From Bacteroidales bacterium (lineage in GTDB: Bacteria > Bacteroidota > Bacteroidia > Bacteroidales > UBA1556): 41,988 bases of DNA. Below the pieces are notes generated by a model. It was given only the letters and a program-made list of their open reading frames with translations. It did no database searches and was not told where the DNA came from. Location: positions 4,463 through 46,450 of the forward strand of contig JAOZPM010000004.1 in the NCBI GenBank assembly GCA_029932765.1. Direction: 5' to 3'. Made by a program: the position numbers and the translations under genes. How positions within the stretch are numbered: position 1 is the stretch's first letter; each line of letters begins with the position of its first letter. This document shows positions 2,647 to 23,068 of the stretch, piece by piece.

Positions 2647-2682
2647 TATATTTGACTTTAGGGTTTTATATTTGTATATTTG
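2647..2682 (+). promoter_or_regulatory. Bacteroidota sigma-A promoter for the beta-helix/T9SS operon
   Basis: TTTG (2651-2654), a 20-nt spacer and TATATTTG (2675-2682) fit the -33/-7 consensus. TATATTTG occurs three times (2647, 2667, 2675). Confidence 0.65.
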
Positions 2683-2741
2683 TAGTTCGAAGTTGCAGAA
2701 TAGAATTACCTTATATTAATTATAATAAAAATATAAATCTT

Positions 2742-3767
2742 ATGAAAAAGTTACTCCTTCTTTTAACTGTTATCCTAATAACAACAAACTTAAACGCTAC
2801 AATAATAAATGTAGATAGCGACCCAAATAGACCAACAGGCTATTATGGTGATTTGCAGTTAGCCTTAAATAATGCATCGCCTGGCGACAGTATTTACCTT
2901 TATCCGTCCAATAATTCCTATGGAACTATAACTATTGAAAAGCAAATTCATATTTTTGGTGTTGGCTTTGTAGGTTCCTCTGGAGGCTCTCTTTCGCGAA
3001 TTGGAAATATTAATCTTGATTCTTCAACTACTGTATCGGGCAATCCATCGGGTTCATCATTTCAAGGCTTATATTTTTCATCTTTAAGCTGTCAAAGAAA
3101 GAATATTACTAATATTATAGTTTCTGGAAATGAGTTTTCTACAATATCGTTACAATACAATTGCTCAGGTTGGTTAATTGTAAATAATTTATTATCGGGA
3201 TATATTTCTGTTAATAATAACTCTTCAATGATAATCACTAATAATATTTTTAGAAGTAGTACATATGGTATTAGTTCAAGTAATTCTACCTCTGTTATCA
3301 TATCGCATAATATGTTTTTTTATTGGCAAAATTTTAATTCAGTTCATAATGCTATTATCTCTGATAATATATTTATGTTTAATACCGCAACGCCCACCAG
3401 CTCATCAATGTCACATAATATTTTCAATAACAATTTGGGGTGGCGATCTGCATTAAACCCTGCAGTATTACCTCCTGAGGGTAATAGCGGAAGTGGTAAT
3501 ATCCCTAATCAAGATCCTTTATTTGAAACTGGTCCTTCTAATACGTCTTACGACTATACCAAAGATTATCATTTACAGAGTACATCTCCAGGCAAGAATG
3601 CGGCTTCAGATGGAAGCGATATTGGTATTTATGGAGGGAGTACTCCTTTCGTTTGGGGAGGGATTTATTCTATTCCTAAAATAACTATGACTAATATTAC
3701 CAATCCAGTAATAAACCAATCTACACCAATTAATGTAAATATTAAAGCCAAGAAAGCAGGGCTATAA
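2742..3767 (+). CDS. Secreted right-handed parallel beta-helix protein, paralog A (341 aa from ATG 2742)
   Basis: MKKLLLLL signal peptide at 2742; the TTG at 2652 lies inside the promoter. N-cap LQLALNNASPGDSIYLYP, Asn-ladder repeats (IIVSGNEF, LIVNNLL, IITNNIF, IISHNMF, IISDNIF), C-cap DPLF..DYHLQSTSP..DGSDIG. No T9SS CTD. Confidence 0.85.
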   Translation: MKKLLLLLTVILITTNLNATIINVDSDPNRPTGYYGDLQLALNNASPGDSIYLYPSNNSYGTITIEKQIHIFGVGFVGSSGGSLSRIGNINLDSSTTVSGNPSGSSFQGLYFSSLSCQRKNITNIIVSGNEFSTISLQYNCSGWLIVNNLLSGYISVNNNSSMIITNNIFRSSTYGISSSNSTSVIISHNMFFYWQNFNSVHNAIISDNIFMFNTATPTSSSMSHNIFNNNLGWRSALNPAVLPPEGNSGSGNIPNQDPLFETGPSNTSYDYTKDYHLQSTSPGKNAASDGSDIGIYGGSTPFVWGGIYSIPKITMTNITNPVINQSTPINVNIKAKKAGL

Positions 3768-3809
3768 AAATAAATTGAATCATTATAAATTATTTAAAAT
3801 TATAAAATT

Positions 3810-4835
3810 ATGAAAAAATATATACTTTTTGCCTTAATGCTTACTTTTGCTATAATAGCTGAAGCTACAGTAATAAATGTTGATAATAAATCTAATAGAC
3901 CCAGTGGATATGTTAAGAGCTTGCAACTTGCAATCACTAATTCGTCGGTAGGAGATACAATCTATGTTTATCCATCGAACCAATCATATGGTGCTATAAC
4001 TATTACAAAAGAATTGCATATTTTTGGTTTTGGCTATGATGGCACTAGTGGTGCTGTTTCTAAGGTTGATCATATTTATCTTGATACAATAGCTACGCCT
4101 TCAACCACATCGTCAGGCACAACAATACAAGGGTTTACCGTAGGCGCTTTAACTTGTTCTAAACCTTATATATCGGATATTGTCATTTCAGGAAATAGCT
4201 TTACTAGCTATTTAAATTTGGGTGCAAATTGCTCGGGTTGGTTAATTACAAATAACTACCTAGACGATATAAGTCTAAATAATAATACATCCATTGTTGT
4301 TTCTAATAATGTATTTAGAAGTCATCCTTATGGCATATATACAAGTAATTCTTCATCTGTAGTTATTTCCAATAATTTATTTATGCAATGGTCTCGTTTT
4401 AGCAATGTTCATAATGCAACGGTAAGCAATAATATATTTATTTGCAATGCAAATACTTATGTCGGTACAGATATGACAAATAATGTTTTTAATAATAATA
4501 TTACTTATTGTTCTAATTCAAGTTATTCTTATACACTGCCTACAAGTGGTAATTCAGGTGCTGGAAATCTTAGTAATCAGAATCCAGTTTTTGTTACAGG
4601 AACAATAAATTCAACTTATGATTATTCAAAAGATTATAATCTACAATCCACATCGCCAGGAATAGATGCAGGAACAGATGGGAGTGATATTGGTGAATAT
4701 GGTGGTAATAACCCATTTGTTTGGGGTGGTGCTTTTACTATTCCAAAAGTAACTCAACTTAATATTGTTAACCCTATTATTAATCAAGGAACTAATATAG
4801 ATATAAACGTAAAGGCAAAGAAAGCAGATTTATAA
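3810..4835 (+). CDS. Secreted right-handed parallel beta-helix protein, paralog B (341 aa)
   Basis: Signal peptide; colinear with the upstream paralog (LQLAI..GDTIYVYPS, CSGWLI.NN, YDYSKDYNLQSTSPG, GSDIG.YGG..PFVWGG, IPK..KAKKA.L). Confidence 0.88.
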   Translation: MKKYILFALMLTFAIIAEATVINVDNKSNRPSGYVKSLQLAITNSSVGDTIYVYPSNQSYGAITITKELHIFGFGYDGTSGAVSKVDHIYLDTIATPSTTSSGTTIQGFTVGALTCSKPYISDIVISGNSFTSYLNLGANCSGWLITNNYLDDISLNNNTSIVVSNNVFRSHPYGIYTSNSSSVVISNNLFMQWSRFSNVHNATVSNNIFICNANTYVGTDMTNNVFNNNITYCSNSSYSYTLPTSGNSGAGNLSNQNPVFVTGTINSTYDYSKDYNLQSTSPGIDAGTDGSDIGEYGGNNPFVWGGAFTIPKVTQLNIVNPIINQGTNIDINVKAKKADL

Positions 4836-4853
4836 ACTCAAAACTTAGGAATT

Positions 4854-7800
4854 ATGACACGACTTATCCGAAATACTATCGGAGTAGTGCTTTGCCTTTT
4901 CTTTGTTTTGCCACAGTTAAATGCCCAGCAAATACAATATGCAGAATATTTCTTCGATAACGACCCCGGCAGAGGTAATGCAATATCAGTTAGCATCACC
5001 CAGGCCAACACAATAGATGCTTCGTATAGCATCTCAACATCTAGCCTTAGCTCAGGCATGCACTTTTTGTACTTTAGAGTGCAAGATACAGATGCAAATT
5101 GGAGTTTAAGTGATTCACGGCTTTTATATATTTCTAGCACAAATGCTTGTGATATTTCTGCCGCAGAGTATTTTATTGATAGCGACCCTGGTAAAGGGGC
5201 CGCAACATCAGTGTCAATAAGTGCTGGTGCTAATATCGATATTACAGAATCTATTGCAACATCAGGCCTTAGTACGGGCATTCATTTTCTTTATTTTAGA
5301 GTTAAAAATGATGATGGTGTATGGAGCTTAACAGATTCTAAATTATTATATATATCTGCAAATAGCTCTACACAAGATATTACTAAAGCAGAATATTTTA
5401 TTGATACTGACCCAGGTTTTGGAAATGCTACTGATGTTTCTATAAGCGCGGGAGCAACTATTAATATTAATGAGAGTATTAATACATCTAGCTTAGGAAC
5501 AGGTATCCATTTTCTTCATTTTAGAGTAAAAGATGCTAATGACGTTTGGAGTCTTACCGATTCTAGATTATTGTATATTTCTGCAAATAGCTCTACACAA
5601 GATATTACTAAAGCAGAATACTTTATTGATACTGACCCTGGTTTTGGGAATGCTACTGATGTTTCCATAAGTGCAGGAGCAACTATCAATATAAATGAGA
5701 ATATTATTACATCAAGTTTAGGTGCAGGTATTCATTATCTATATTTTAGAGTAAAAAATGCTGATGGAGTTTGGAGTCTTACCGATTCTCGTCTAATGTA
5801 CGTTACAGAGAGTAATTCGAGCAGCGATATTGTAGCTGCAGAATACTTTTTTGATAACGACCCAGGAATAGGGAATGCTTCTTCGCTTACTGTTGCTGCT
5901 GATAGTGCTGTGGATATTAGTTCATCTGTATCTATATCGGCATTAAATGCTGGTTTGCATAATTTATATGTAAGGGTAAAAGATGGTAATGGTAAATGGA
6001 GTCTTGCTGCACAGCAGTTATTATATAAATCAGAAAGTATTATTAATGGTAATTTAATCTCTGCAGAATACTTTTTCGATACTGATCCAGGTTTTGGAGC
6101 TGCTTCATCAATTTCTATTACTCCTGCTGATAGTATTAATATTATAGCTACTCTCAATACAAATGGTCTTGAGGCTGGTATTCATAAGCTTAATATAAGA
6201 GTTAAGGATGTAAATGGACTATGGAGTTTGAACTCTAAACGTATGCTTTATTTAATGGCAGGAGAATTATCTTCACCCAGAATTACTGCTCTTGAATACT
6301 ATTTTGACCAAGACCCAGGATTAGGTAATGGAAGCTCTATTAGCCTTACGCCAAATGATGTTATTGATGTTACTGATGCTATTGCATCTTCATCATTAAC
6401 TATGGGAAACCATATGTTTTATGTAAGAGCTCAAGACTCATTAGGGCGATGGAGCCTAAGCGATAAACGCTTGGTTTATGTTAGTCCTGATATGGCTAGT
6501 CAAGTAATTGTTGCCATAGAATACTCTGTGGATACAATAATGCCATGGGGGCAAGGAACTATTGTAAATGTAAGCTCAGCTGATAGTTTGGATGAAATTT
6601 TTACTTTTAATCATGGATTGTCGGATACGCTATATCATGCTTTATATACTCGCGTAAAAGATGCTGGTGGAAGGTGGAGTATGCTAGATTCTATACATTT
6701 TAGAATGGAAAATTGTATTATTCCTACTGCAATATTTTATGTAAATAATTTATGTTTAGGCGATTCCATAACCTTATATAATAACTCATTGGATATTGAT
6801 ACAGCTACTGTTTACGAATGGAATATTGGTAATAATAACATTGTAGAATCTACCGACTCCATAGAGTTTAAGATAGGGTTTGCACAAGTTGGCACTTACG
6901 ATATTCTATTGAAAGTAACAAATATGGTTTGTATTGATACAATGCTTAAATCTATAACAGTACACCCTCGACCAGCAAAAGATATTTCTTCTTTTGGAGA
7001 TGTGAACTTTTGCCCCGGTAGTTTTAGTGTGCTTTCTGCAAATACTGGTGTTGGTTATCAATACCAATGGTATAAAAATGGAAGTATGATTACTAATGCC
7101 AATTCAAGTTTCTACCAGGCTCAAGACTCTGGTAGTTATTCTGCCGCAATAAGTAATATTTATAATTGTAGTGATACAACTGCAGCTATTGATATTAGTG
7201 TATACGACTTGCCAACAGCAACAGTAACCTTAATGGGGAATAATTCTTTCTGTAATGGTGATTCTGTAGTTTTAAGTGCAAATCAGGATGCTGGTTTAAC
7301 TTATATATGGTATCGTAATGGAAGTATTATTATTGGAGAAAATTACTCTACAATAGCTGTTAGCAATGCTGGCGACTATAAAGTTGAAATAAGTAATACA
7401 AATGGATGTAGCGATATGTCGTCAACAATAAGTATTAGTGTTAATCCACTTCCAACCTCAGGAATATCATCGGGTGGAGCACTAACATTCTGCGATGGCA
7501 ATAATGTACTTCTTTATGGAAGTAATGGTGTTGGCTATTCTTATCAATGGTATAAAAATGATACTGCCATTTCTGGCTCTACTTCATCATTTGTTTCAGC
7601 ACTAGAGTCGGGAGAGTATAAGGTGTATATCGAAAACACTTATCAATGTGGAGATACCTCATCAAGCTTAACCGTAATTGTGAACCCAAGCCCAGTTTCA
7701 AATATTCAATTATTAGGAACACAGGCTATATGTATGGGCGATACTGCTGAGTTAGTAGCACCTACAATGCAAGGATTAACATATCAATGGAGAAGCTATG

Positions 7801-10502
7801 GTACTGATATAAATGGTGCAAATGATTCTGTTTATTATGCTTTGCAAACAGGAAATTATAGTTTGATAACAACCAATGGGTTTAATTGTAGTACTGAATC
7901 AGCTCTGCAATTAGTAACCGTGAACCCAAACCCTGGGGCTTCTATATTGCCTCTAAGTGCAACAACTTTCTGCTCTGGCGATTCGGTATTATTACAAGCA
8001 AATACAGGGTCTAATTTAACTTATCAGTGGTTTAAGGATAATGCTGCGCTAGTTAATGATACACTTAATGGCCTTACTGCAATGTCCTCAGGAGCATATA
8101 TAGTAGAGGTTAGCAATGAGTTTAGTTGTATAACTACTTCATCGGTGACTGATGTTACTGCTTTTGATATTCCAACTTCTATTTTTAGTGTAGATGCTGA
8201 GGTTTGTTCTTCAGATACTATTCAAATTCAATATATGGGTACAGCAACTTCTAGTGCTTTTTATAATTGGAATTTTGGTGGTGCAACTATTATTGGTGGA
8301 GTGGGACAAGGACCATATAGTGTAATATGGAATAGTGCTGGTCATAAAAGCATTTCACTTACAGTAAATGAAAATAATTGCTCTTCAATAGAGTATATTG
8401 ATACAACTATGGTTAATTCTGTAAGTGCGAGTATTACTGCACCAATTACATCTGTTTGTCAGGGTGATACTGTATTGCTTACTGCTAATAGTGGTTCAGG
8501 GCTTCAGTATCAGTGGCTTCAGTCTGGCAATAATTTATCTGGAGATACACTTTATTCGGTAAATATAACAACTACGGGAATTTATCAAGTAGAGGTTATT
8601 GATGCTAGTATTGGATGCACGCAAAAGTCAGCTCCAGTAAGTGTAGTTATTAATGCAACAGATTTTAGTTTGGATTTTGCAGCTTCTACGGTTAATTTTA
8701 CTCAGCCTCCTTTTGATGTTACATTTAGTAATTCCACACCAAATATGAATGAATATAATTTTCAGTGGGAATTGGGAGATGGAAATACATCAACTTTCTA
8801 TAATCCTATACATACTTATCAATATAATGGTAATTATTCGGTGGCTATGTTTGCTGAGAATAGTACCACAGGTTGCCGAGATACTCTAATAAAAGTAGAT
8901 TATGTTAATTGTGCCGGTGGTGCGCCAAATCCTTGTAATATTATAGCTGCAATTACTCCAACAGGGCCAGCTACTGTTTGCCAGGGTGATAGCGTATTGC
9001 TCCAAGCGAGTGCAGGAACAGGCTATACATATCAGTGGGTTTATAATAATGTTATAATCCCCAATGCCGATAGTATTATTTACTATGCTAAACTATCTGG
9101 TAATTATCGTGTAATTGTTGCCGATTTGATTTGTTCTCAAACGTCACCAGCATTTATACTTAATAATTATCCAAGTATCTTTCCTGTAATACAAGCTAGT
9201 GGATTAATACAGCCTTGTACTACCGATAGCCTTGAGCTAAGTTTATTGGTTAATTATACTAACTATAACTGGAATACAGGACAAATTGATGCAAGTATTT
9301 ATGTAAGTCAAACTGGATATTACCAAGTTGCAGTTACTGATAATTATGGTTGTAATATGACATCTACACCTTATATAGTTAGCAATTCATACCTAAATCC
9401 TCCTGACCTTTGTTTAATAGGTGTTGACACAAGTAATCATAATCAGCTTGTGTGGGAACGACAATCCAATGCACTAATAGATAGTTTCTATGTGTATAAA
9501 GAGGGATTTATTGCAGGGCAATATGATAAAATAGGAGCAGTTCCATTTAATCAAACTTCGGTATTTGTTGACCAAAATTCTAATCCAGCAGTTAAAGCAT
9601 ATAAGTATAAGATAGCGGCAGTAGATACCTGTGGAGGTGTTACCCTATTAGGTAATTTCCATAAAACTATTCACCTTACTATTAATGCTGGTTTAAATGG
9701 TAGTTGGAATTTGATATGGGATGGATACGAAGGTTTTGCTTTTAGCACTTATCGTATTTATCGTGGTACAAACACCAATAATATGAGTTTGCTAACTCAG
9801 TTGCCAAGTTCTGCAACTTCTTATACCGACTTGAATCCGCCAACTGGCACTGTTTATTATCAAATAGAGATAATAAAAACTACAGGATGTTATCCTGATA
9901 CAACAGTTGCAAAGGTGAATACAAATTATAATTCGTCGAGGAGTAATACTGCAAATAATGCCAATATAAACCCTGTATATTTAACAGCAGATTTCTCTGC
10001 TGATATACAGACTGGTGTTTGGCCTATTCAGGTAACATTTGAAGATGCCTCTTCTGGTGGCCCCGATGCATGGCATTGGAACTTTGGCGATGGTAATACA
10101 AGTGTAGAGCAAAACCCTAATCATACATATAATAATACAGGTGTATATACTGTAAGTCTAGCAATATGTAATGGCGAAATTTGCGATACTATTGTCAAAA
10201 CTAATTATATAGAAGTTCTTCCAAATGGTATGGTAGAAATAGGAGTGGAGATGAGCGCTAAGCTATATCCAAATCCTAATGATGGAAACTTTACTCTGGA
10301 GATAAATGATAGAAATAGTCATCAACTGGAAGTGCATATATATAACACATTAGGCGCGGAAATTTATTCTGAAAGCTTTGTGTCAAATGGTAAAACTTTG
10401 AAGCACTTAAAGCTAAATGACCTTTCCAATGGAGTTTATTTTATCCATTTAAATACTAAGGATAAGGTGGTTTATAGATCTAAGTTTATAAAGCAAGACT
10501 AA
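4854..10502 (+). CDS. Large T9SS type A cargo surface protein: 8 EYFxDxDPG repeats, Ig-like/PKD stalk, FN3-like pair, PKD, CTD
   Basis: Signal peptide ending LNA-Q. Repeats AEYFxDxDPGxG; Ig-like units FCxGDSVxL..YQWYKNG; PKD motifs WELGDG and WNFGDG. C-terminal LYPNPNDG..IYNTLG..LSNGVYFI..KFIK is typical of the type A CTD. Confidence 0.9.
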   Translation: MTRLIRNTIGVVLCLFFVLPQLNAQQIQYAEYFFDNDPGRGNAISVSITQANTIDASYSISTSSLSSGMHFLYFRVQDTDANWSLSDSRLLYISSTNACDISAAEYFIDSDPGKGAATSVSISAGANIDITESIATSGLSTGIHFLYFRVKNDDGVWSLTDSKLLYISANSSTQDITKAEYFIDTDPGFGNATDVSISAGATININESINTSSLGTGIHFLHFRVKDANDVWSLTDSRLLYISANSSTQDITKAEYFIDTDPGFGNATDVSISAGATININENIITSSLGAGIHYLYFRVKNADGVWSLTDSRLMYVTESNSSSDIVAAEYFFDNDPGIGNASSLTVAADSAVDISSSVSISALNAGLHNLYVRVKDGNGKWSLAAQQLLYKSESIINGNLISAEYFFDTDPGFGAASSISITPADSINIIATLNTNGLEAGIHKLNIRVKDVNGLWSLNSKRMLYLMAGELSSPRITALEYYFDQDPGLGNGSSISLTPNDVIDVTDAIASSSLTMGNHMFYVRAQDSLGRWSLSDKRLVYVSPDMASQVIVAIEYSVDTIMPWGQGTIVNVSSADSLDEIFTFNHGLSDTLYHALYTRVKDAGGRWSMLDSIHFRMENCIIPTAIFYVNNLCLGDSITLYNNSLDIDTATVYEWNIGNNNIVESTDSIEFKIGFAQVGTYDILLKVTNMVCIDTMLKSITVHPRPAKDISSFGDVNFCPGSFSVLSANTGVGYQYQWYKNGSMITNANSSFYQAQDSGSYSAAISNIYNCSDTTAAIDISVYDLPTATVTLMGNNSFCNGDSVVLSANQDAGLTYIWYRNGSIIIGENYSTIAVSNAGDYKVEISNTNGCSDMSSTISISVNPLPTSGISSGGALTFCDGNNVLLYGSNGVGYSYQWYKNDTAISGSTSSFVSALESGEYKVYIENTYQCGDTSSSLTVIVNPSPVSNIQLLGTQAICMGDTAELVAPTMQGLTYQWRSYGTDINGANDSVYYALQTGNYSLITTNGFNCSTESALQLVTVNPNPGASILPLSATTFCSGDSVLLQANTGSNLTYQWFKDNAALVNDTLNGLTAMSSGAYIVEVSNEFSCITTSSVTDVTAFDIPTSIFSVDAEVCSSDTIQIQYMGTATSSAFYNWNFGGATIIGGVGQGPYSVIWNSAGHKSISLTVNENNCSSIEYIDTTMVNSVSASITAPITSVCQGDTVLLTANSGSGLQYQWLQSGNNLSGDTLYSVNITTTGIYQVEVIDASIGCTQKSAPVSVVINATDFSLDFAASTVNFTQPPFDVTFSNSTPNMNEYNFQWELGDGNTSTFYNPIHTYQYNGNYSVAMFAENSTTGCRDTLIKVDYVNCAGGAPNPCNIIAAITPTGPATVCQGDSVLLQASAGTGYTYQWVYNNVIIPNADSIIYYAKLSGNYRVIVADLICSQTSPAFILNNYPSIFPVIQASGLIQPCTTDSLELSLLVNYTNYNWNTGQIDASIYVSQTGYYQVAVTDNYGCNMTSTPYIVSNSYLNPPDLCLIGVDTSNHNQLVWERQSNALIDSFYVYKEGFIAGQYDKIGAVPFNQTSVFVDQNSNPAVKAYKYKIAAVDTCGGVTLLGNFHKTIHLTINAGLNGSWNLIWDGYEGFAFSTYRIYRGTNTNNMSLLTQLPSSATSYTDLNPPTGTVYYQIEIIKTTGCYPDTTVAKVNTNYNSSRSNTANNANINPVYLTADFSADIQTGVWPIQVTFEDASSGGPDAWHWNFGDGNTSVEQNPNHTYNNTGVYTVSLAICNGEICDTIVKTNYIEVLPNGMVEIGVEMSAKLYPNPNDGNFTLEINDRNSHQLEVHIYNTLGAEIYSESFVSNGKTLKHLKLNDLSNGVYFIHLNTKDKVVYRSKFIKQD
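4926..6710 (+). repeat. Eight tandem ~225-bp (75-aa) intragenic repeats (7 canonical, 1 degenerate)
   Basis: Consensus I..AEYF.D.DPG.G.A..(V/I)SI.....I.I...I....L..G.H.LY.RVKD..G.WSL...RL.Y. Repeats 3 and 4 start at 5376 and 5601, exactly 225 nt apart. Confidence 0.92.
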
Positions 10503-10518
10503 ACTCTAGCATAATTAG

Positions 10519-10559
10519 AAAGCCCCTAATTACAACTGTAATTAGGGGCTTTATTTTTT
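10519..10559. terminator. Intrinsic terminator, probably bidirectional, between convergent T9SS cargo genes
   Basis: Perfect 16-bp inverted repeat AAAGCCCCTAATTACA (10519-10534) / TGTAATTAGGGGCTTT (10537-10552), followed by a T-run. Confidence 0.85.
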
Positions 10560-10595
10560 GTAATTTTAACTGCAAGTATAATTGAAGAGTAGATA

Positions 10596-12866
10596 TTACT
10601 TGAGTAAATGTATAGTTCCTTTTAGAATATATTGCTCGCGGAGAGTTTCCGTAATTTCAAAAACGTAAGTATAAACTCCAGAAGGAGCCTGATCCCCTTT
10701 ATAAGTGCCATCCCATTTTATTGATGGTTCATCAGATTTGAATATTAACTCTCCCCATCGATTAAAAATATACATTCTGAATCTATCTATTGCGGCATAT
10801 TGTCCCACAATACCAAATTCATCATTTAAACCATCGCCATTAGGGGTAAAAGCATTAGGAGCATAAAAGAAATTACATCTTTCAACATTTAGTGTAAAAG
10901 AAGTATCATGCGTACATCTAGTTTGGTTATATACATTTGTAAGTTGTAAAGAATAAGTTGTTTTTTGCGTTGGTTGTACTATAATATATTGGCTCATTTC
11001 TCCAGTATTCCATAGGTATTCGTCAGCAACTGATGCTCTAAGTTCAGTAGATTTTCCAAGGCAAAGAGTATCATCAATGGTGCTAATTATTGCTGTAGGA
11101 ATATCAAGTACATCTACTAATAAGGATGCTGTATCTATACAATTGCTAATATTGGTTACTGTTACAGAATATCTTGTTAATGAAGAAGGACTTACATATT
11201 GGGTTCTAGAATTAGCCCCATTGCTCCAGCTATAATCTGCATAATTTCCTAATGCGCGTATATAAGCCGATGATCTATTACAGATTGTTGTATCTAAACT
11301 TACCATTGCAATAGGAGAGTCAAGAGCTTTCACATAAGTACTATCAGCTACAGTACATCCAAATGTGTCGGTTACAACAATACTATAATACTCACTACTA
11401 TTTACAAGAAATGAAATATCAGATGTTAGTTCTCCATTGTCCCATAAAAAAGTATACGAAGGGTCACCAACTGCTGATATATGTGCTGTGTCGTTTGAAC
11501 ATACCGAATCTCCAATAATAACTATTTGAGGGCTTCCATCATAAATAATAATTTGATCAAATGTGTCAGTATTGCATATATCAGTTATAGTTAAAGTATA
11601 TGTAGTTGTAATGCTAGGGTCTGACAATAAAGTGGAGGTTGTGTCGCCTGTACTCCACGTATAAGAATAAGGCAAATATCCACCTACTATATTAGGATTA
11701 ATAGTCATAGTATCACTATTGCATAGTACAGTATCAGATGGTAAATTACATTCTAAGGTTTTATTGTCGGCAATATAAATTGTTAGTGTATCATAAGTAC
11801 ATGATGAAGTTGCAACGAATAATTCAATATATTCCAATCCTTCATTTATTCCATCAATAATAGGTTCTATAAGTATTGATGTAGAATCTGAGCCCGCAGG
11901 AATAGTTACAGTTCCTGGTAAATACACATAATCAACACCATTAATAGCATCTCCTGAAGTAGCATAATAAAGTACTTTATCCACAGGAGTAATATATGGT
12001 ATTTGTATTCTTACTATTGCATTATTACAGCCTTCAATTGCCATAGTGTCAATAGAGTTTGTTGTAGTTGTAGATAAATTAACGGTATTGCTCGAAAAAC
12101 TGTTTGCTTCAAGAAATACACCAGAATCAAAAATGGCATCAGAAGCGTCGCCAATTACTAGCTTAATATGATAAGTAAAACAAGGCACCACAAGAAAAGT
12201 AGCATATAAAGGTGTAGTATAGGCATCGTAAGCAACATATGGACTTGCAGAATTATTTACATAATATGAACAATTGACACAAGGCCCTGTACCCCAGGTT
12301 CCATTATTAATATTTGCAATAGAAACAGCTGTAGAAGTGCCTGGTAATAAGGCCACATTCTGATTAGTATACATTCCTCCACTAGGATTATATCCACTTA
12401 TAAAAAAACCAAAAACATCATTAAAGCTAGATAATGAAAATTCGGGGTATTCTTCAGAGCCAAAAATATATTTGAATTTTACAGTATCAGACAAAGGAAC
12501 AAAATCAAATTCTAGTATTGCAGCATCATTTATAGTAAATGTAATTAGGTTAGCTAGTAGAGGGTCTGAACCGCCAGAAGTTGATGTGCTGGCAAAGGTG
12601 CTTGCAGCTCCCGCTACTTGGGTTGCATTGCCAGTGCATAATATCAAGCCATCGGTCATGCCTAAGGTTGTAGCATTAGCTCCTGTAGTAAATTTAGCAA
12701 TGCTTTGTAAGTCGCCTGTATATGTTACATTACTTACTGAAACCCCAGTTCCAGTAAGTATATTCTGAACCCACTGTGCAACTGTTCCTGTTTGACTCAC
12801 AACTAATTGTCCTTTAGAACTAATTAAAAATAGCAAGAAGAAGGAGGTTAATATATATTTAATCAT
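10596..12866 (-). CDS. T9SS type B (gliding motility-associated CTD) protein with N-terminal choice-of-anchor L-like domain
   Basis: N-terminal DAAILEFDFVP..F.Y.FGSEEYPE..FNDVFGFFISG..YHIKL.IGD..D..FDSGVFLEA; Calx-beta-like and Ig-like stalk; C-terminal APNAFTPNGDGLND.F..IFNRWGE..WDG..GVY.Y. Confidence 0.88.
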   Translation of the reverse strand: MIKYILTSFFLLFLISSKGQLVVSQTGTVAQWVQNILTGTGVSVSNVTYTGDLQSIAKFTTGANATTLGMTDGLILCTGNATQVAGAASTFASTSTSGGSDPLLANLITFTINDAAILEFDFVPLSDTVKFKYIFGSEEYPEFSLSSFNDVFGFFISGYNPSGGMYTNQNVALLPGTSTAVSIANINNGTWGTGPCVNCSYYVNNSASPYVAYDAYTTPLYATFLVVPCFTYHIKLVIGDASDAIFDSGVFLEANSFSSNTVNLSTTTTNSIDTMAIEGCNNAIVRIQIPYITPVDKVLYYATSGDAINGVDYVYLPGTVTIPAGSDSTSILIEPIIDGINEGLEYIELFVATSSCTYDTLTIYIADNKTLECNLPSDTVLCNSDTMTINPNIVGGYLPYSYTWSTGDTTSTLLSDPSITTTYTLTITDICNTDTFDQIIIYDGSPQIVIIGDSVCSNDTAHISAVGDPSYTFLWDNGELTSDISFLVNSSEYYSIVVTDTFGCTVADSTYVKALDSPIAMVSLDTTICNRSSAYIRALGNYADYSWSNGANSRTQYVSPSSLTRYSVTVTNISNCIDTASLLVDVLDIPTAIISTIDDTLCLGKSTELRASVADEYLWNTGEMSQYIIVQPTQKTTYSLQLTNVYNQTRCTHDTSFTLNVERCNFFYAPNAFTPNGDGLNDEFGIVGQYAAIDRFRMYIFNRWGELIFKSDEPSIKWDGTYKGDQAPSGVYTYVFEITETLREQYILKGTIHLLK

Positions 12867-12889
12867 AATACTAGACTTAATAATTATTG

Positions 12890-12897
12890 CAAAGTTA
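12890..12897 (-). promoter_or_regulatory. -7 element (TAACTTTG) for the type B cargo gene
   Basis: TAnnTTTG match about 23 nt upstream of the ATG. Confidence 0.55.
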
Positions 12898-13023
12898 TCA
12901 AAATTAAGATGCAGTTTAGGTAAAAAAGTTGCCTTGAATAATAAATAGTATTTGAATTAAAAAAAAATCATAAATTCGTAGCTTGAAAATAAAAGTAAAT
13001 AAATAATATAAAACAAATATAGA

Positions 13024-14394
13024 ATGGATAAATCAAAGAAATTTTTAGAAGAGAACAAAGATCGTTTTTTGGAGGAGCTTTTTGAGTTAATTAGAATACC
13101 TTCAATTAGTTCAATAGCTGATCATAAACCAGATATGATACGTATGGCTGAAGCTTTAAAAGCTTCATTATTGGCTGCTGGTGTTGATAAGGCTGGTGTA
13201 TACGAAACAGAGGGTAATCCAGTAGTTTATGCTGAAAAAATAATTGATAAATCAAAACCTACTGTGCTTGTTTATGGTCATTATGATGTTATGCCTGTTG
13301 ATCCATTAGACTTATGGGATAGCAAGCCTTTTGAGCCAGAAGTAAGAGATGGTAAAATATGGGCTCGTGGTGCAGATGATGATAAAGGTCAATCGTTTAT
13401 GCATGTTAAAGCTTTTGAAGCTATGGTTGCTAATGATGAGCTTCCTGTAAATGTGAAGTTTATGCTTGAAGGTGAAGAGGAAATAGGTTCTCCAAGTCTT
13501 GGGAAATGGTGTGCTGATAATAAGGAAATGCTAAAAGCAGATACAATTTTGGTTTCTGATACTGGAATTATTGCACCAGATATTCCTTCAATTACTACTG
13601 GTCTTAGAGGCTTGAGTTATGTTGAGGTTAAAGTTGTAGGCCCTAATAGAGATTTGCATAGTGGTTTGTTTGGCGGGGCTGTTGCTAATCCAGCCAACGA
13701 ATTGGCAAAAATAATTGCTGGTCTAACAAATGAGGATAATTATATTACTATTCCTGGTTTTTATGACGATGTAATTAATGTTAGTGCCGAAGAAAGAGCA
13801 TTAATGGCAAAAGCTCCTTTTAATCTTGAGGAGTATAAAAAAGCTATTGATGTAAAAGCAGTTTCTGGAGAAAAAGGATATTCTTCAAATGAACGAACTG
13901 GAATTCGTCCAGCATTAGATGTTAATGGTATTTGGAGTGGTTATACTGGCGAAGGTGCAAAAACTGTATTGCCTTCAATTGCTCAAGCAAAAATTTCTAT
14001 GCGCTTAGTTCCTAATCAAGATAATGAGAAAATAAGTCAATTGATAAAAGATCATATTGAGAAAAATGCGCCTGATTATATAAAGGTAGAAGTTACACCT
14101 CTACATGGTGGTCAAGGTTATGTTTCTCCTATAGATTTGCCTGCTTATGTTGCTGCTGATAAGGCTTATACTGAGTCTTTTGGTAAGAAGCCAGTTCCAG
14201 TACGTAGTGGTGGAAGTATTCCTATTATATCTACATTTGAAACTGTACTTGGTATTAAATCTATTCTAATGGGATTTGGTTTGGAAAGTGATGCTATTCA
14301 CTCACCAAATGAAAATTACCCTCTTTTCAATTTCTATAAAGGAATGGAAACTATTGTTAATTTCTATAAGTATTTTGCTGACGAAATGAAATAG
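13024..14394 (+). CDS. M20 family dipeptidase
   Basis: YGHYDVMP, ARGADDDKGQ, EGEEEIGS, DLHSG.FGG, GGSIP and IHSPNE motifs. Confidence 0.93.
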   Translation: MDKSKKFLEENKDRFLEELFELIRIPSISSIADHKPDMIRMAEALKASLLAAGVDKAGVYETEGNPVVYAEKIIDKSKPTVLVYGHYDVMPVDPLDLWDSKPFEPEVRDGKIWARGADDDKGQSFMHVKAFEAMVANDELPVNVKFMLEGEEEIGSPSLGKWCADNKEMLKADTILVSDTGIIAPDIPSITTGLRGLSYVEVKVVGPNRDLHSGLFGGAVANPANELAKIIAGLTNEDNYITIPGFYDDVINVSAEERALMAKAPFNLEEYKKAIDVKAVSGEKGYSSNERTGIRPALDVNGIWSGYTGEGAKTVLPSIAQAKISMRLVPNQDNEKISQLIKDHIEKNAPDYIKVEVTPLHGGQGYVSPIDLPAYVAADKAYTESFGKKPVPVRSGGSIPIISTFETVLGIKSILMGFGLESDAIHSPNENYPLFNFYKGMETIVNFYKYFADEMK

Positions 14395-14432
14395 GTATAT
14401 TTTATATAATCCTGTTTGAAATAAGAATAATT

Positions 14433-14462
14433 GAGGCTGTCTTTTGAGATAGCCTCTTTTTT
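14433..14462 (+). terminator. Intrinsic terminator
   Basis: GAGGCTGTCT-TTTG-AGATAGCCTC hairpin followed by a T-run. Confidence 0.8.
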
Positions 14463-14533
14463 GTTTAATTTAATAAAGGCAAAATTAGAATCATTTTGAA
14501 GGGTTGCCAACAAATAGGTATTTTAATAAATAC

Positions 14534-15091
14534 TTAAAAATATAAATGCTCAATCAGTATTTTTACTCCAATAGAGATAAGAACTATACCTCCAAAAATT
14601 TCAATAAATTTACCAAAGCGTGCGCCCATAAACTTGCCAACTTGCAGCCCAATAATTGATGCCAAAAAAGTAATAACTCCTATAATAATTACAGGCATAA
14701 CTATATTTATATCAATCAATGCAAAGCTAATACCCACAGCAAAAGCGTCAATACTTGTTGCGATGGATTGTGCTATTAATTTTGAGTTCGTTAAAGTTTC
14801 ATTGCCCTTGTCATCATCGTCAGATAAAGTATCGTAAATCATCTTTAATCCGATTATTGATAATAAAATAAATGCAACCCAATGATCAATTTCTTTAATA
14901 TAATCTGCAATTTCTATTCCTGCATACCATCCTATCAATGGCATTAAGGCTTGAAAAACAGAAAGGGTAATTGCAATTTTTAGCTTCTCAACCCACGATA
15001 TGTTTTTTATTGCCAATCCATTTGCAACAGATACAGCAAAAGAATCAACTGATAAACCTAATGCTACTAATAATATTATTAATAAATCCAT
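14534..15091 (-). CDS. mntP: Manganese efflux pump MntP family
   Basis: Two repeats, LSVDSFAVS and ATSIDAFAVG, plus FQALMPLIGW, IDHWVAF and EIFGG.VLI.IG; hydrophobic, 185 aa. Confidence 0.92.
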   Translation of the reverse strand: MDLLIILLVALGLSVDSFAVSVANGLAIKNISWVEKLKIAITLSVFQALMPLIGWYAGIEIADYIKEIDHWVAFILLSIIGLKMIYDTLSDDDDKGNETLTNSKLIAQSIATSIDAFAVGISFALIDINIVMPVIIIGVITFLASIIGLQVGKFMGARFGKFIEIFGGIVLISIGVKILIEHLYF

Positions 15092-15188
15092 CTAATTTTT
15101 TTAATCTGATTGAAACAAAAATAACTAAATATGGCGCCTTATATAATTAAGTTCATTGAGATAATAATATGAGCATGATTTATTATTC

Positions 15189-15226
15189 AAAAAAAAAGTG
15201 ATTATGATTAATAACCACCTTTTTTT
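15189..15226 (-). terminator. Intrinsic terminator after the Rrf2 gene
   Basis: Minus-strand stem GGTGGTTAT / ATAATCACT (with G-U pairs) followed by a long U-run. Confidence 0.65.
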
Positions 15227-15228
15227 CT

Positions 15229-15642
15229 TTAAAAATTATTATCTAGATAATACTGCAATGATTTTTCTTCTAAATATATTTTAAATTGCTCCGACATATC
15301 GTTAACTATTGTGCCCAATAAGCACTTTTTGAAAGGACAATGGTCGTATCCCATTGGGCAATTCATTTTTGGTAGTTTTCCTTCTATTGCTTCGTAAATA
15401 TCCAATAAACTTATGTCTTTTGGTTCCATTTTTAAAAAGAAGCCACCTGAAGGTCCTCTGCTACTATCTAGCATGCCAAATTTGTTTAGTCGTTGCATTA
15501 CTTTTGCAACATGATGCTTAGAAAAATTAAACTCTTCAGCAAGTTTATTTACATTTACACGGTTTTTATTTTTAGCAATAAATACCATAGAATGAATACC
15601 TATGCTAGCGGCTTCGGACATATTAAATAAACTGTTTGACAT
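15229..15642 (-). CDS. Rrf2 family transcriptional regulator, probably Fe-S binding
   Basis: Winged HTH with KVMQRL..S.RGPSGGF.L..ISLLDIYEAIEG; three Cys in C-x6-C-x4-C. Confidence 0.9.
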   Translation of the reverse strand: MSNSLFNMSEAASIGIHSMVFIAKNKNRVNVNKLAEEFNFSKHHVAKVMQRLNKFGMLDSSRGPSGGFFLKMEPKDISLLDIYEAIEGKLPKMNCPMGYDHCPFKKCLLGTIVNDMSEQFKIYLEEKSLQYYLDNNF

Positions 15643-16024
15643 AAGATTGTATTGTGAATTCTTATTAATTATTTGCAGCGGTAAAAGTACATAATTTTAG
15701 CCCATTATATTACTCAGTATACTTTTAGATTGTTTATTTAGGAATATAGATTATATATCTTATTTGCCTTATTTTTTATTGTTTTTGCTATTGTTTGCTT
15801 GTTGTTTAATGATTATAAGTCTATTAGGTTTTGATTATTGTTACACCTCTTTAAAGGCTGTTTAATTGTCAAATAAGTAAATAAGTACTTTAATTGATTT
15901 AAGTCAATTTCAATAGTGAGTTATTTTGTTCGAAAGTTGTGCCTAATGTTTTGTTTGTCATTAGTCGTAAATTATCTAATAATTAGGGATTTTTTATTAT
16001 ACCTTAGCTTGAAATTAATATCAA

Positions 16025-19000
16025 ATGAGCTTAGTAACTTATAAATCATCAGCGGGATCAGGTAAGACTAGTACTTTAGTAATTGAATATCTTGCAATTG
16101 CGTTGCAAAAACCTGGGCAATTTAAACAGATTGTGGCACTTACTTTTACACAAAAAGCAACTGCTGAGATGAAGGAAAGGCTTGTGGAATATCTTATTTC
16201 CATAAAGGAAATGGATGCAAAAAAGCCTGATGGGTCAATTCTGTATATTATAGAAGCTATTAGAGATAAAACGAGATATAACTTTCATGAAATTAAAAGT
16301 AGAGCTAAGGTTCTACTTACAAATATTCTTCATAATTATGGTGATTTTGGATTCTCTACAATTGATAGTTTTGTAGTGAAAATAGTGAGAAGCTTTGCTC
16401 ATGACTTAAAACTATCTGCTAATTTTGAGATAGAGTTGGATAGTAGTATAATAATAGAAGAAGCAATAGGTCAGCTTAATGAGTTAATTGGTAAGAATGA
16501 GGAAATTACCAATTTTATGATAGCTTTTACTCTCGATCAACTTGATAATGAAAAAAGCCCTGATTTGGATGAACCTTTAGCTAATTTGGGGAAACTTATT
16601 TTTGATTCCAAACATTATAATAATATTGATTTATTGAAAGATATTCCATTACAGAATTTTTTAGAAATAAGAACACTATTATTAAATAAAACTAGAGAAT
16701 ATGAAGCAAAAATAGAGAGCTTTGGTAAAAAAGGTCATGAATGCATTTCTAATAAGGGTTTAAGCAAAGGAGATTGTTCTAGTAGTTGGCTTTGGAGTTA
16801 TTTTAATAAGTTAAAAAATAGAAAAGAGACCGAAAATATAGCGAAGCTAGAAACAGCTTCTTTTCTTAAGTTTGTGGAAAATGGAAATGATTGGTACGCT
16901 AAATCAAAACCCATTAGTTTGAAAGAAAGCATTGATTCGGCAAAAGGAGAATTATTAGATATAATTTTAGAAGCAAGAAAATTCTATATGGAAGGAATTC
17001 CAATATACTTGGCAAACAAACTTATACTTCAAAGAATAACACCATTGGCATTAATTCATCAAATGAAACAAATAATAGAGATGAATTATGAAGAGAATGA
17101 TATGATTCATTTATCGGAAGCCAACCGAAAGATCTCTGAAGTTGTAAACGAACAGCACGCTCCTTATATATATGAAAGAATCGGTCAGCGATTCAATCAT
17201 TTCTTGATTGATGAATTTCAAGATACATCAGTAATACAATGGAATAATATGTTGCCACTTATTGATAATAGTTTGGCATCTAATTTCCGAAATCTATTGG
17301 TTGGAGATACTAAGCAATCAATATATCGTTGGCGAGATGGCGAGGTAGAGCAATTTGCGTCGCTTCCTAATATTATTGGCGAAAATAAATCGGTTATAAC
17401 TAAAGAAAGAGAAACGCTTTTAAAAGCAATGTATGAGGAGGTTATTCTTGATACAAACTATAGAAGTAAGGAGAATATTGTAAATTTTAATAATAAGTTA
17501 TTCTCATTTATACTTAATAATGAAGATGATTATGTAAAGTCATTTTTTCAGAATCATATTCAAAAAACTCATAAGAAGTTTAACTCTGGAGTTGTTAAAT
17601 TAACTAATGTTGCGAAAAATAAAAATGAAGAATATAAGAACGAAGACCTTATTAATAGCATTATATATAGTATAAAAGACCTTACAGTAAATCAAAACTA
17701 TGAATTTGGTGATATTTGTATTTTGGCCCGTAAGAATAAGTTTCTTTCTCAGCTTGCATACAAACTTATTGATAATAATATAAAGGTATATAGTTCTGAT
17801 GCGTTATTTCTAATATCCTCAAATACTGTTAATGTGATTATTAACTTTATGAATATTATTATTGACAATAATTTTGCTATTAATTCATATAGTGCATTAC
17901 GATATTTTTATAAACAAAATAATAAAGGAGAGCCTGGCGAAAATATAAATTCCAAAAGTGATTTTATTAATAAAATAAATAGTATTGGTTATACATTTGA
18001 TTTAGAGTTGATGGACAATATGGATGCATATGAACTATGCGAATATGTTGTGTCAAATCTAAAGTTAGAAAATTCTTCAAATCCATTCATATATAGTTTG
18101 CTTGATGTTATAATTGAATTGAGTAAAAAGAAAGGTGCGAGTATATCCCAGTTTATCGATTATTGGGAAGATAATAAAGGAAAACTAAAAATAGATTTAG
18201 CTGGTGATAAAGATTCAGTGCAATTATTAACCATACATAGAGCTAAAGGCTTGGAATTTCCTGTAGTTATTTTTCCAATAATAGAAATTGATTCAATACT
18301 AAATGGACGAGATATTTTGTGGGTAGAGCCTGATGAAGAAATTAAGGAGAAAGTTCCTAAGGTTTTAATAGGTGATTATAAATATGGCTTAAATAGTCAG
18401 TTTGCTGATATAATAAGTCAGGAAATGCATCGCAAAGAATTAGATGCTATGAATATGATATATGTGGCTTGTACACGACCGACACAAGAGTTACATCTAT
18501 TTTTTAATAAGGAAAAGGATTCTCAAAAATATTGGAATGCATGTAATTCTATTAATTGGGAAGATGAGCGAGTATTTGTTAAGGAAGATAATATGGTTCA
18601 AATAGGGGAGGATAAAGAAAACACCAAGCATATTGATAAAAATGAAAATAGTGTTTCCATAAATAGTTTTATAAGTAATTTCTGGAAAGATAAGATACAT
18701 CTGCAGCGAGATATTAGTAAAAATAAAGCACTACGTGATAAAGGTACTCAGCTACACTATTTACTTTCTATAACCGATAGTGAAACAAATATTGAAGACC
18801 TTATTAGTACAAACCTTAAGAAAGGAATGATTTATGAAGAATATGCTTTGGAGTTTGAGACAATAATAAAAGGCTTGCTCGCAAATTCCGAAACTAAATA
18901 TTTATTTTCTACAGAGAATGAATATATAAATGAAAAAGAAATTATTACTCCCGATAATAGAATAATTAAGCCAGATAGAATATTGCTAAACAAAAATGAA

Positions 19001-22600: not shown

Positions 22601-23056
22601 CCAATCGTATTGATTGATCCTAGTACTGGTGATCATTCAGCAGCTAATATAGATCCTAGTAGTGGTGGTATTATCAATTCTGGTGTTATTCCAGTACTTG
22701 ATGCTGCAGGAAACCCAACAGGAGAGTATGAAGAAAATGCTATGAGAATAAGAGCTAACTGGTACGGTACTGATGGTTATGGTGTAAGCCCTAATGCTCG
22801 TTTCGTATATGATGCTTCTTACCTTAAATTAAGAGAAATGTCTTTAACTTATGTTCTTCCTAAAGAAATATTAGGAGAAGGTTTCTTTAAAGGTGCTTCA
22901 TTTAGCTTAGTAGGTTCTAACATATGGATTATTTTTAAGAATCTTCCAGATGCAGATCCTGAAGCAGGTTTAAGCTCAGGTAACCTTCAAGGTTTCCAAA
23001 GTGGTGTGATGCCAACTACTCGTAATTTTGGTTTTAACGTAAACTTACAATTTTAA
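19691..23056 (+). CDS. SusC/RagA family TonB-linked outer membrane transporter
   Basis: Signal peptide, CarboxypepD_reg-like N-domain, ITALGI.RE, DINPDDIES..VLKGAAATALYGSRAANGVIIITTK, L.PE.T..E.G, DASYLKLRE, terminal Phe. Confidence 0.95.
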   Translation: MRKIMFLLALFLFTGMQLVQAQKTVTGKITDAKDGSGIPGVTVLVKGTTIGTISSMDGTYEISFDEKYNVLVYSFVGMGTQEIEVGSQSTIDVKMESGITEIEGAVITALGISREKKSLGYSTQEVSGDDLNTVKNENFVNSISGKVSGVQVKTNSNFGGSTNIIIRGTTSLTGDNQALFVIDGVPVNNSNTNASSQRQGGSGYDYGSAVSDINPDDIESINVLKGAAATALYGSRAANGVIIITTKKGNKVRKGEDAIGITLSSSVTMGIIDKSTFPEYQTGYGAGYGPYYSGGDHPGLFEHIDFDGDGNPDLSVPTTEDASYGEQFDENLMVYQWTSSVPEHEDYGKATPWVNGAKGPIDFFNNAYTFRNSVAVDGGSEKGSYRVSYTNTTQTGIMPNSKLTRNNLSVSGSHEFGKGLTVSSNVNYMNTLTTGRNSTGYSNNILSSYRQWWQTNIDIADMESLYMDLPEGQKRNVTWNPHSLTDGTPEYWDNFYWSRYENYTTDVRDRILGNVQADWKITDYLSILGRASVDYYSSIQEERLAVGSTSRRWGISRLDAGSGYSRYNYNFRETNFDIMANFTKNLTKDLSLNAIVGWNVRRTNINTIYASTNGGLVVPQLYAVSNSINPVNAPVEGSRIYGVDGIYASASLGYKNFLYVDATIRRDHASTLPEESSSYFYPSVAASYIFSQHLKADWLSFGKVRVNYAEVGNSAPFASIYDVYSKPSPFGSTPMFSVPSVKNNINLMPERTKSIEAGIEMMFLQKRVGFDFAVYKTNTIDQILPVSVSTATGYSYKYVNSGEIENKGIELAVFATPMRRDNFSWDVRLNFSKNTNEVLSLYDDVDNLVLGSYQGGITINATVGEAYGTIKGTDYVYVDPEDRNSDKIINGNNGRYLRSAKSDETIGNITPDFNMGLTNTFTFFKNFRFSFLLDWQKGGSVFSLDHWYGDATGLYKFSEENNDLGNPRRDPIVLIDPSTGDHSAANIDPSSGGIINSGVIPVLDAAGNPTGEYEENAMRIRANWYGTDGYGVSPNARFVYDASYLKLREMSLTYVLPKEILGEGFFKGASFSLVGSNIWIIFKNLPDADPEAGLSSGNLQGFQSGVMPTTRNFGFNVNLQF

Positions 23057-23068
23057 TAACAATCGACT

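Follow-up and report, generated by a model that had tools for sequence, protein, structure and literature searches.

Surface-anchored scaffolds made of tandem small β-sandwiches, which receive their partners through a short C-terminal element, are known from cohesin-dockerin systems, and matched types can occur there side by side in one genome. A comparable arrangement is proposed here for a locus of Bacteroidota, found in a 41,988-nucleotide stretch of contig JAOZPM010000004.1 from a Bacteroidales bacterium (this whole stretch is hereafter called the window). Two genes of the locus encode putatively Sec-exported β-helix proteins ending in a two-strand tail, and the next gene encodes a giant type IX secretion system (T9SS) cargo with tandem repeats, onto which the tails could dock. 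However, the module formed by such genes has no homology with cohesin-dockerin systems: its tail is a two-strand hairpin and not a duplicated Ca-binding dockerin, its repeat of ~65 amino acids (aa) is smaller than the cohesin of ~140 aa, its anchor is a T9SS C-terminal sorting domain (CTD), and the binding itself is predicted. A search against Pfam gave no Dockerin_1 (PF00404) match in either β-helix protein of the window and no cohesin match in the giant.

In donor-strand complementation of chaperone-usher pili and in strand exchange of the type V pili of Bacteroidota, a partner strand completes or extends a small immunoglobulin (Ig)-like sandwich in the periplasm, and a similar principle is proposed for the module. 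Its donor would be neither a PapD-like chaperone nor an adjacent pilin but a β-helix protein, and it would provide two strands rather than one. Furthermore, neither a lipoprotein signal nor a polymerisation logic was seen by eye, and an incomplete fold is not clear in the AlphaFold2 models. Judged by sequence-defined features, the module appears to belong to neither the cohesin-dockerin nor the donor-strand systems.

Cargo of the T9SS is thought to require a C-terminal sorting domain of its own. The module is related to such ordinary type A or type B cargo, since three relatives of its β-helix proteins (from L052, L062 and L064; L numbers denote fetched loci and G numbers genomes) are single-chain cargo and the giant of the window is a regular type A protein. 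On the other hand, the head and the CTD-bearing stalk of the module are separate polypeptides, linked non-covalently at most, and the β-helix proteins would not count as T9SS cargo by the CTD criterion. Their supposed export resembles hitchhiking. The passages of PMC9251779 cited here describe piggyback export for Tat and peroxisomes, as well as the movement of folded proteins by the T9SS through the 36-strand SprA barrel. Likewise, a subunit without a sorting signal would cross a membrane that folded proteins pass by riding on a partner that has one, but these passages describe no T9SS counterpart, and such export of the module is hypothetical. A full-text literature search, with supplementary secretome tables outside its scope, found no description of such a β-helix/repeat module.

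Tailed β-helix genes and repeat genes occur together across the phylum

A sample of 401 genomes, evenly drawn from the phylum, was searched with a profile of the β-helix proteins and a profile of the repeat. The β-helix profile was matched in 140 genomes at E ≤1e-5, mostly by partial matches, and a near-full-length tailed β-helix was present in 43. The repeat was found in 47 genomes, including all of these 43, so that no genome carried a tailed β-helix alone. The four remaining genomes are explained exceptions. In G010 and G123, a divergent β-helix protein with a YGG-plus-two-strand end is encoded directly upstream of the repeat gene (461 aa, aligned by hhalign at probability 98.9 across 315 columns, tail included, and 399 aa, hhalign probability 96 for the N-terminus only, respectively); the repeat genes of G113 and G220 lie against a contig end. 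The preliminary description of the locus had named co-occurrence of tail and repeat genes as a test of its model, and this is the pattern that the sample reveals.

The genomic contexts point in the same direction. We fetched 20 kb around 20 of the best full-length matches, distributed over 19 genomes and chosen by their β-helix score, not by their context. The twentieth locus is a fusion in G198, described below; the other 19 loci comprise 20 modules with 24 β-helix open reading frames (ORFs). In every one of the 20 modules the repeat gene follows the tailed gene or genes on the same strand (two of these repeat genes were recovered by six-frame search), and the gap between them, measured from ORF coordinates, is roughly 10-100 nucleotides (nt) in most modules. 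In five genomes listed in full, all 15 repeat genes have a β-helix gene directly upstream and all 19 full-length β-helix genes adjoin a repeat gene, 18 of them upstream and one just downstream. In the genome of the window, β-helix genes and repeats are confined to the window locus.

A far wider spread of the repeat was initially inferred from database searches, which retrieved the EYFxDxDPG repeat in >1267 large surface proteins and gave 90 hits for the β-helix family. This was abandoned, as the genome-level distributions are near-identical; the difference in hits is due to the word-based search. Collectively, these data leave very little doubt that tailed β-helix and repeat genes constitute a real, conserved two-gene module, and genes linked so strictly in both directions almost certainly share a function.

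The β-helix proteins and their terminal tail

The two β-helix proteins of the window are 52% identical (179/343, E 2e-115). Both have signal-like N-termini without a lipobox Cys, as judged by eye, and searches of Pfam and NCBIfam gave no Por_Secre_tail, CHU_C or T9SS_Cterm match at E ≤0.1. No family of these databases was matched above its cut-off, and there was no Beta_helix, lyase or esterase match; the closest models, all below cut-off, were NosD (14.1 vs 23.6 bits) and TIGR04247 (11.4 vs 300). The AlphaFold2 model of the second protein, P0002, computed with a 40-sequence alignment, is a right-handed β-helix (pLDDT 88, pTM 0.84). Foldseek aligned it to β-helices of PL6, GH136 and pectin methylesterase type (E 1.8e-4 to 1e-3), with the PDB entries 7dmk, 7v6i, 6kfn and 2nsp matched at probability 1.0 and TM scores of only 0.3-0.4. 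The initial view of these genes as encoding two Sec-exported β-helix proteins devoid of a T9SS CTD is borne out by the modelled fold and the missing CTD match, with the signal read by eye.

A database search retrieved 90 relatives, of which 88 have 330-392 aa, the other two being a fragment of 244 aa and a protein of 562 aa; in the Atlas, the family appears only as "hypothetical" or auto-named β-helix clusters. Across the 40 aligned sequences, polar residues conserved at ≥80% are found in the N- and C-terminal caps only and none lies in the rungs 68-281, which argues against a conserved catalytic groove.

The tail occupies the very end of these proteins. In the P0002 model, DSSP assigns strands to residues 313-319 and 332-337, in line with the two or so terminal strands first noticed by inspection, and the protein stops 4-5 residues past the last strand. 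The confidence of the model drops to pLDDT 62-72 over aa 311-330 and to 60 over aa 331-340, compared with values mostly >90 in the body. No gap interrupts the tail in any of the 40 aligned sequences, down to 28% identity; the tail is always terminal and contains an invariant Pro312, and its mean conservation in the alignment is 0.52 vs 0.49-0.59 for the body. The T9SS is common across the phylum. We considered whether the tail could be a minimal T9SS signal and rated this unlikely, since the tail occurs only where the repeat occurs while the T9SS is widespread.

Several frames of 412-426 aa whose match is limited to about the first 150-280 positions of the profile were considered as CTD-bearing relatives and then rejected, as they proved to be NosD-like and to lie beside ABC ATPase genes. 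Four such NosD-like proteins were fetched (L056-L059, from G111, G377, G137 and G060); they have 415-420 aa and match the first ~230-280 profile positions. Each of their genes is followed by an ABC-ATPase-like ORF (by eye), an arrangement resembling nosD-nosF. Outside the β-helix family, these proteins come closest to it in sequence. Within the family, three copies carry a single in-frame stop (TAA, TGA and TAG in G311:C12:257566-258642, G087:C172:7102-8109 and G087:C143:132-1118, respectively) inside the match, which may reflect pseudogenes or errors of assembly; the second paralog in L034 loses its tail through the stop.

The giant cargo and its repeats

The giant protein (P0003) starts with a putative Sec signal, MTRLIRNTIGVVLCLFFVLPQLNA-QQ, recognised by eye, and its C-terminus matches Por_Secre_tail (PF18962) with 50 bits (cut-off 27) and TIGR04183 with 48.5 bits (cut-off 23). 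Its stalk contains Ig_7 (97 bits, 5 stretches), PKD_4, PKD and Ig_2 domains. The same genome encodes SprA on contig C179 (TIGR04189, 2670.6 bits, cut-off 200) and has 95 Por_Secre_tail matches. The repeats start near aa 27, 101, 176, 251, 326, 401, 477 and 552, and all eight match the repeat profile with 72.7-105.9 bits; the giant was thus rightly recognised from the beginning as a type A cargo with eight repeats of 75 aa. Positions E5, Y6, D11, P12, G13, G15, G42, H44, R49 and W57 of the repeat are nearly invariant.

Repeats 2-4 were modelled together with a 36-row alignment and form confident, independently oriented domains (pLDDT 86.8, pTM 0.43). Each of the three has four DSSP strands of at least three residues and, in addition, a confident segment that is unpaired, in which hydrophobic residues alternate at positions 28, 30, 32 and 34 (70 aligned repeats). 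Of the five strands per repeat that had been supposed, four are therefore seen as DSSP strands, whereas the fifth (IDITESI) is confidently modelled but unpaired.

Comparison with known folds places the repeat among small β-sandwiches. Foldseek aligned the repeat model to tandem Ig-like arrays (E 5.5e-4 upward). VIA retrieved small FN3, E-set and PKD sandwiches (Z 5-6.2 over 57-74 residues at ~2-3 Å, middling values below the specific level), starch-, agarose- and mannan-binding modules (Z ~4.8-5.0), and 2w1n, a cohesin-FN3 double module (Z 5.2 to one or the other module). The closest described families are Y_Y_Y (PF07495) and small E-set domains of the GbpA_D3 type. The 587-aa repeat region exceeds the Y_Y_Y cut-off when summed over repeats (30.3 bits, cut-off 26.6, 2 stretches), and the full-protein scan gives 13.6 bits. 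Precomputed matches to PF07495 or PF21868 are present in many homologs of the repeat protein and those to PF00404 in several, and the Atlas neighbours of the repeat are auto-named Y_Y_Y clusters. However, single repeats match only the second half of the Y_Y_Y profile, at positions 28-60 of 65, and the EYFxDxDPGxG half has no model. The repeat profile, searched by sequence against solved structures, found nothing below E 0.25. The best of these non-significant matches are the J-segment ends of antibodies (YFDxWGQGTxVTVSS vs EYFfDtDpGvGnGtsisv, E 0.25). This likeness of a Gly-bulged strand is probably fortuitous.

Heads carry either a tail or a CTD

Besides the giant of the window, 17 partners from other loci, ranging from 258 to 2262 aa, were scanned for domains; a further partner, that of L038, runs past the locus end at >3154 aa. 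Among the 18 scanned partners, 11 have a Por_Secre_tail, three have a CHU_C domain, two have a probable CTD (CTD-like end, FlgD_ig-type match at the C-terminus) and two have none. In most partners the repeats begin 12-75 residues from the N-terminus. The middle part varies and may consist of LRR, PKD, Ig_7 or DUF7619 domains, or of nothing. Indeed, the smallest partners (258 aa in L054, 329 in L045, 493 in L033 and 500 in L039) contain a signal, repeats and a CTD only.

Some partners depart from this scheme. In L040 (G039:C1:1574606-1579071), three β-helix genes, two upstream and one downstream, surround the gene of a repeat protein of 467 aa; its five repeats are of the YW[FV]D type, and in place of a recognisable CTD it ends in an unassigned sequence. 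The L044 partner (8400-9494, minus strand, 364 aa) ends with a dockerin-like D-x-N-G-D ... L-L (by eye) instead of a T9SS CTD. The partner in L049 (10708-14466, plus strand) has both a CTD and a Dockerin_1 match of 26.8 bits (cut-off 22.9). In the L041 partner (10573-17361 in G237, 2262 aa), the repeats start from aa 537, behind an N-terminal region of unassigned type, and three of them are near-identical.

The relatives of the β-helix proteins that possess their own CTD show the opposite arrangement. A Por_Secre_tail was detected by Pfam in those of L052 (39.4 bits), L062 (32) and L064 (30.1), and by eye in that of L063. All match the β-helix profile only to position 225-311 and so lack the tail, and no repeat match was found in their genomes (G198, G285, G167 and G397). 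The heads of this wider group thus have either a CTD in cis or a tail together with an adjacent partner made of repeats and a CTD. The existence of such partners and of tail-less CTD-bearing relatives fits the view that the repeats serve as carrier or anchor. The L052 relative (9784-11751 in G198), the fusion mentioned above, is a 655-aa protein in which β-helix positions 1-311 are joined to Laminin_G_3 (104.6 bits) and the Por_Secre_tail.

Tails and repeats also fall into matched types, as seen by eye. L040 (three genes), L042, L043 and L045 have P-x-N-P ... A-Q tails, always with non-DPG YW[FV]D repeats, and the remaining fetched modules combine I/V-P ... K/Q-A-K-type tails with DPG repeats. 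Both matched types are present in G039. Such sequence types would fit cognate pairing and, equally, simple co-inheritance of each operon.

Prediction of a tail-repeat complex

A complex of one repeat (70-row alignment) with aa 296-341 of P0002, including the tail (40-row alignment), was predicted. The three runs reached ipSAE values of 0.37, 0.37 and 0.35, and the best of three controls gave 0.00; this was graded as "weak support", and the output contained no interface. Contacts agreed by at least 92% between the runs, with a partner pLDDT of at least 61. Of 80 solved complexes, 58 attain the mark applied here, as do 2 of 110 mismatched pairs; with values ≤0.60, it is attained by only 7 of the 80 and by both passing mismatches, these counts being approximate with our own alignments. 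The pLDDT was 62 and 69-70 for the two chains together vs 43 and 52-53 with unrelated partners, a difference to which we gave no weight.

The preliminary description had proposed a split Ig domain, in which the tail supplies the A-B strands missing from the repeat, and had suggested folding a repeat with and without the tail. The result is divided: the ipSAE of 0.37 against 0.00 speaks weakly for contact, whereas the repeats already fold with confidence alone. Mainly for the latter reason, a true complementation of the fold by the tail, as judged from these models, seems doubtful, though it may occur. In-cis fusions of tail and repeat, which had also been anticipated, were not encountered, a negative of little weight. 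The display of up to eight heads by one scaffold and piggyback export through the T9SS, both envisaged at the outset, are hypothetical.

Proposed mechanism and alternative explanations

Taken together, the observations suggest a system of two components. The first would be one to three Sec-exported right-handed β-helix proteins of ~340 aa, without a sorting domain and with a terminal two-strand hairpin. The second, encoded directly downstream, would be a T9SS cargo with 2-8 FN3/E-set-like repeats of 75 aa, placed at the end most distant from the CTD that anchors it to the cell, which is the N-terminus in nearly all cases. In the periplasm, the β-helix protein would bind the repeats non-covalently through its C-terminal hairpin, which would add onto the repeat sandwich or complete it, most likely at the conserved, amphipathic positions 28-34 that AlphaFold2 leaves unpaired. 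The complex of β-helix and repeat could then be exported through the T9SS, with the repeat protein serving as carrier and surface anchor and the β-helix as a displayed head, probably ligand-binding rather than catalytic. Docking of the β-helix onto the repeats is well motivated by the strict pairing, the repeat-plus-CTD partners and the tail-less CTD-bearing relatives, and we consider physical binding between the two proteins likely. The chances of the full scheme, binding followed by surface display, appear to us evenly balanced.

Several observations weigh against this scheme. Because related genomes are not independent, fewer independent observations underlie the counts than the figures suggest. 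The repeat profile, in turn, derives from repeats beside β-helix genes, which could bias it to linked copies. Moreover, adjacency and co-occurrence demonstrate a functional link, not contact. Unless the pairing was plausible from the outset, such a pass in the complex fold is wrong in more cases than not, and the binding is a predicted one. The repeats are confidently modelled alone and align to complete FN3, E-set and PKD domains, which suggests that they need not be incomplete. No fusion of β-helix, tail and repeat was found by a search for longer homologs of P0002, a weak negative; its sole match, P0214 (E 6.6e-4), has 1232 aa and its own CTD. In addition, no T9SS CTD was detected in the partners of L040 and L044 (2 of the 18 scanned), the repeats are not N-terminal in two modules (L041 and G039 at ~541.7 kb), and the number of β-helix genes (1-3) does not match that of repeats (2-8).

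The β-helix protein might instead be a dedicated periplasmic chaperone or assembly factor, its hairpin transiently capping the repeats before T9SS export in analogy to pilus chaperones and their donor-strand complementation, and would then remain periplasmic and not be displayed. The same strict pairing and co-occurrence would follow, the Sec-only signal, the missing CTD and the weak tail-repeat fold would be accounted for, and the upstream position of the gene with its short gaps would fit co-translation with the client. We nevertheless hold this explanation to be unlikely. The partners of 258-500 aa that consist of repeats and a CTD would be clients without an evident function of their own, and a 300-aa β-helix with variable rungs would be unusual as a chaperone. 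Furthermore, the tail-less relatives are T9SS cargo with their own CTD, which suggests heads working outside the cell, and the modules contain one to three diverged paralogs (52% identical in the window).

Somewhat less probable still is a joint action without contact, in which the repeats would be carbohydrate-binding-type modules, the β-helix an enzyme or binding protein for the same glycan, and the two genes inherited together owing to this shared polymer. The resemblance of the β-helix model to polysaccharide lyases, GH136 and pectin methylesterases and that of the repeat model to starch-, agarose- and mannan-binding modules are in its favour, and the near-invariant E5, Y6, D11, H44, R49 and W57 could form a ligand or Ca2+ site. 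However, the central rungs have no conserved acidic or basic residues and no Pfam lyase or esterase match was obtained; a periplasmic β-helix would be apart from its surface partner; the terminal hairpin, and its loss where a CTD is present in cis, would remain unexplained; and the adjacency in 20 of 20 modules and 15 of 15 repeat genes was judged tighter than usual for genes of enzymes and carbohydrate-binding modules. Strict pairing, together with the NosD-like proteins beside ABC ATPases as nearest outside neighbours, would also suit a maturation enzyme that covalently modifies or processes the repeats, but the NosD models are far below cut-off, catalytic-type residues are not conserved and no cofactor motif was seen, which makes this role highly improbable. 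We favour a displayed head joined through the tail to a separate carrier or anchor, because of the partners made of repeats and a CTD, the trade-off between tail and CTD, the terminal position, conservation and low model confidence of the tail, and the absence of a conserved catalytic groove.

Organization of the locus and neighbouring genes

The features of the module in the window are listed in Table 1. The three genes are arranged head to tail on the plus strand with gaps of 42 and 18 nt, and a strong terminator-like hairpin follows the last of them, as expected from the operon layout deduced earlier. Terminator-like sites number 11 in this region vs 3.6 ± 2.0 in shuffles. The ATG of the first β-helix gene at 2742 lies within a longer TTG frame, 2652-3767.

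Table 1. Position of the module genes, their domains and the putative expression signals in the window
Feature	Position	Strand	Description
β-helix protein 1	2742..3767	+	341 aa, signal-like N-terminus aa 1-19, right-handed β-helix, no CTD
β-helix protein 1 tail	3672..3764	+	aa 311-341, IPKITMTNITNPVINQSTPINVNIKAKKAGL, C-terminal two-strand tail
β-helix protein 2 (P0002)	3810..4835	+	341 aa, paralog of protein 1
β-helix protein 2 tail	4740..4832	+	aa 311-341, two DSSP strands; used in complex fold
Giant T9SS type A cargo (P0003)	4854..10502	+	1882 aa
Eight tandem ~75-aa repeats of the giant	4932..6731	+	aa 27-626; motif EYFxDxDPGxG ... GxHxLxxRxxD ... W
Giant stalk	6732..10262	+	Ig_7, Ig_2, PKD-type domains (Pfam)
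Giant T9SS type A C-terminal sorting domain	10263..10490	+	aa 1804-1879; Por_Secre_tail, TIGR04183
Tandem TATATTTG words, candidate -7 promoter elements	2667..2682	+	~60 nt before first ATG; read from sequence
Intrinsic-terminator-like hairpin, then T run	10519..10552	+	15 pairs, 6 GC

The promoter that had been placed at 2651-2682 remains a candidate. Two back-to-back copies of TATATTTG, at 2667-2674 and 2675-2682, could correspond to the Bacteroidota -7 motif, TAnnTTTG. On the other hand, the sigma-70-like site at 2652-2680, with a score of 10/12, is at chance level, such sites not being enriched (50 vs 45.1 ± 6.3 expected).

The three-gene unit is flanked by unrelated housekeeping genes and by a convergent gene (10596-12866, minus strand) whose product of 756 aa has a type B T9SS signal, CHU_C (70.3 bits). 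This protein has no further Pfam match and is a T9SS cargo whose gene shares the terminator region of the module. Farther away, the window contains a pair of SusC-like (Plug + CarbopepD_reg_2) and SusD-like genes (19691-24520, plus strand) and, at its end, a second TonB-dependent receptor gene (39334-41853, plus strand); no link with the module was seen for either. Six sequencing runs are listed, all of DNA type and labelled hydrothermal vent or sediment metagenome, and no RNA run is among them.

Significance of the module

If the proposed scheme is true, the CTD-less Sec-exported proteins encoded beside repeat cargo would offer a concrete, testable example of T9SS delivery or anchoring provided in trans. 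A name and a role would also be given to two uncharacterised families, one of which, the β-helix family, has no Pfam or NCBIfam model. In its widest form, this would mean hitchhiking and display by the T9SS throughout the phylum, with CTD-less β-helix proteins carried across the outer membrane and kept at the surface by a hairpin inserted into the small N-terminal repeats of a CTD-bearing carrier, as in a cohesin-dockerin-like pair based on strand complementation, and with matched types providing several independent scaffolds per cell; we regard such a generalization as rather improbable, if conceivable. Should the contact between hairpin and repeat be real and type-specific, the two elements, of ~30 aa and ~65 aa, would constitute a compact natural docking pair. 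Meanwhile, an annotation rule is already usable: a tailed β-helix gene predicts a repeat-bearing partner directly downstream.

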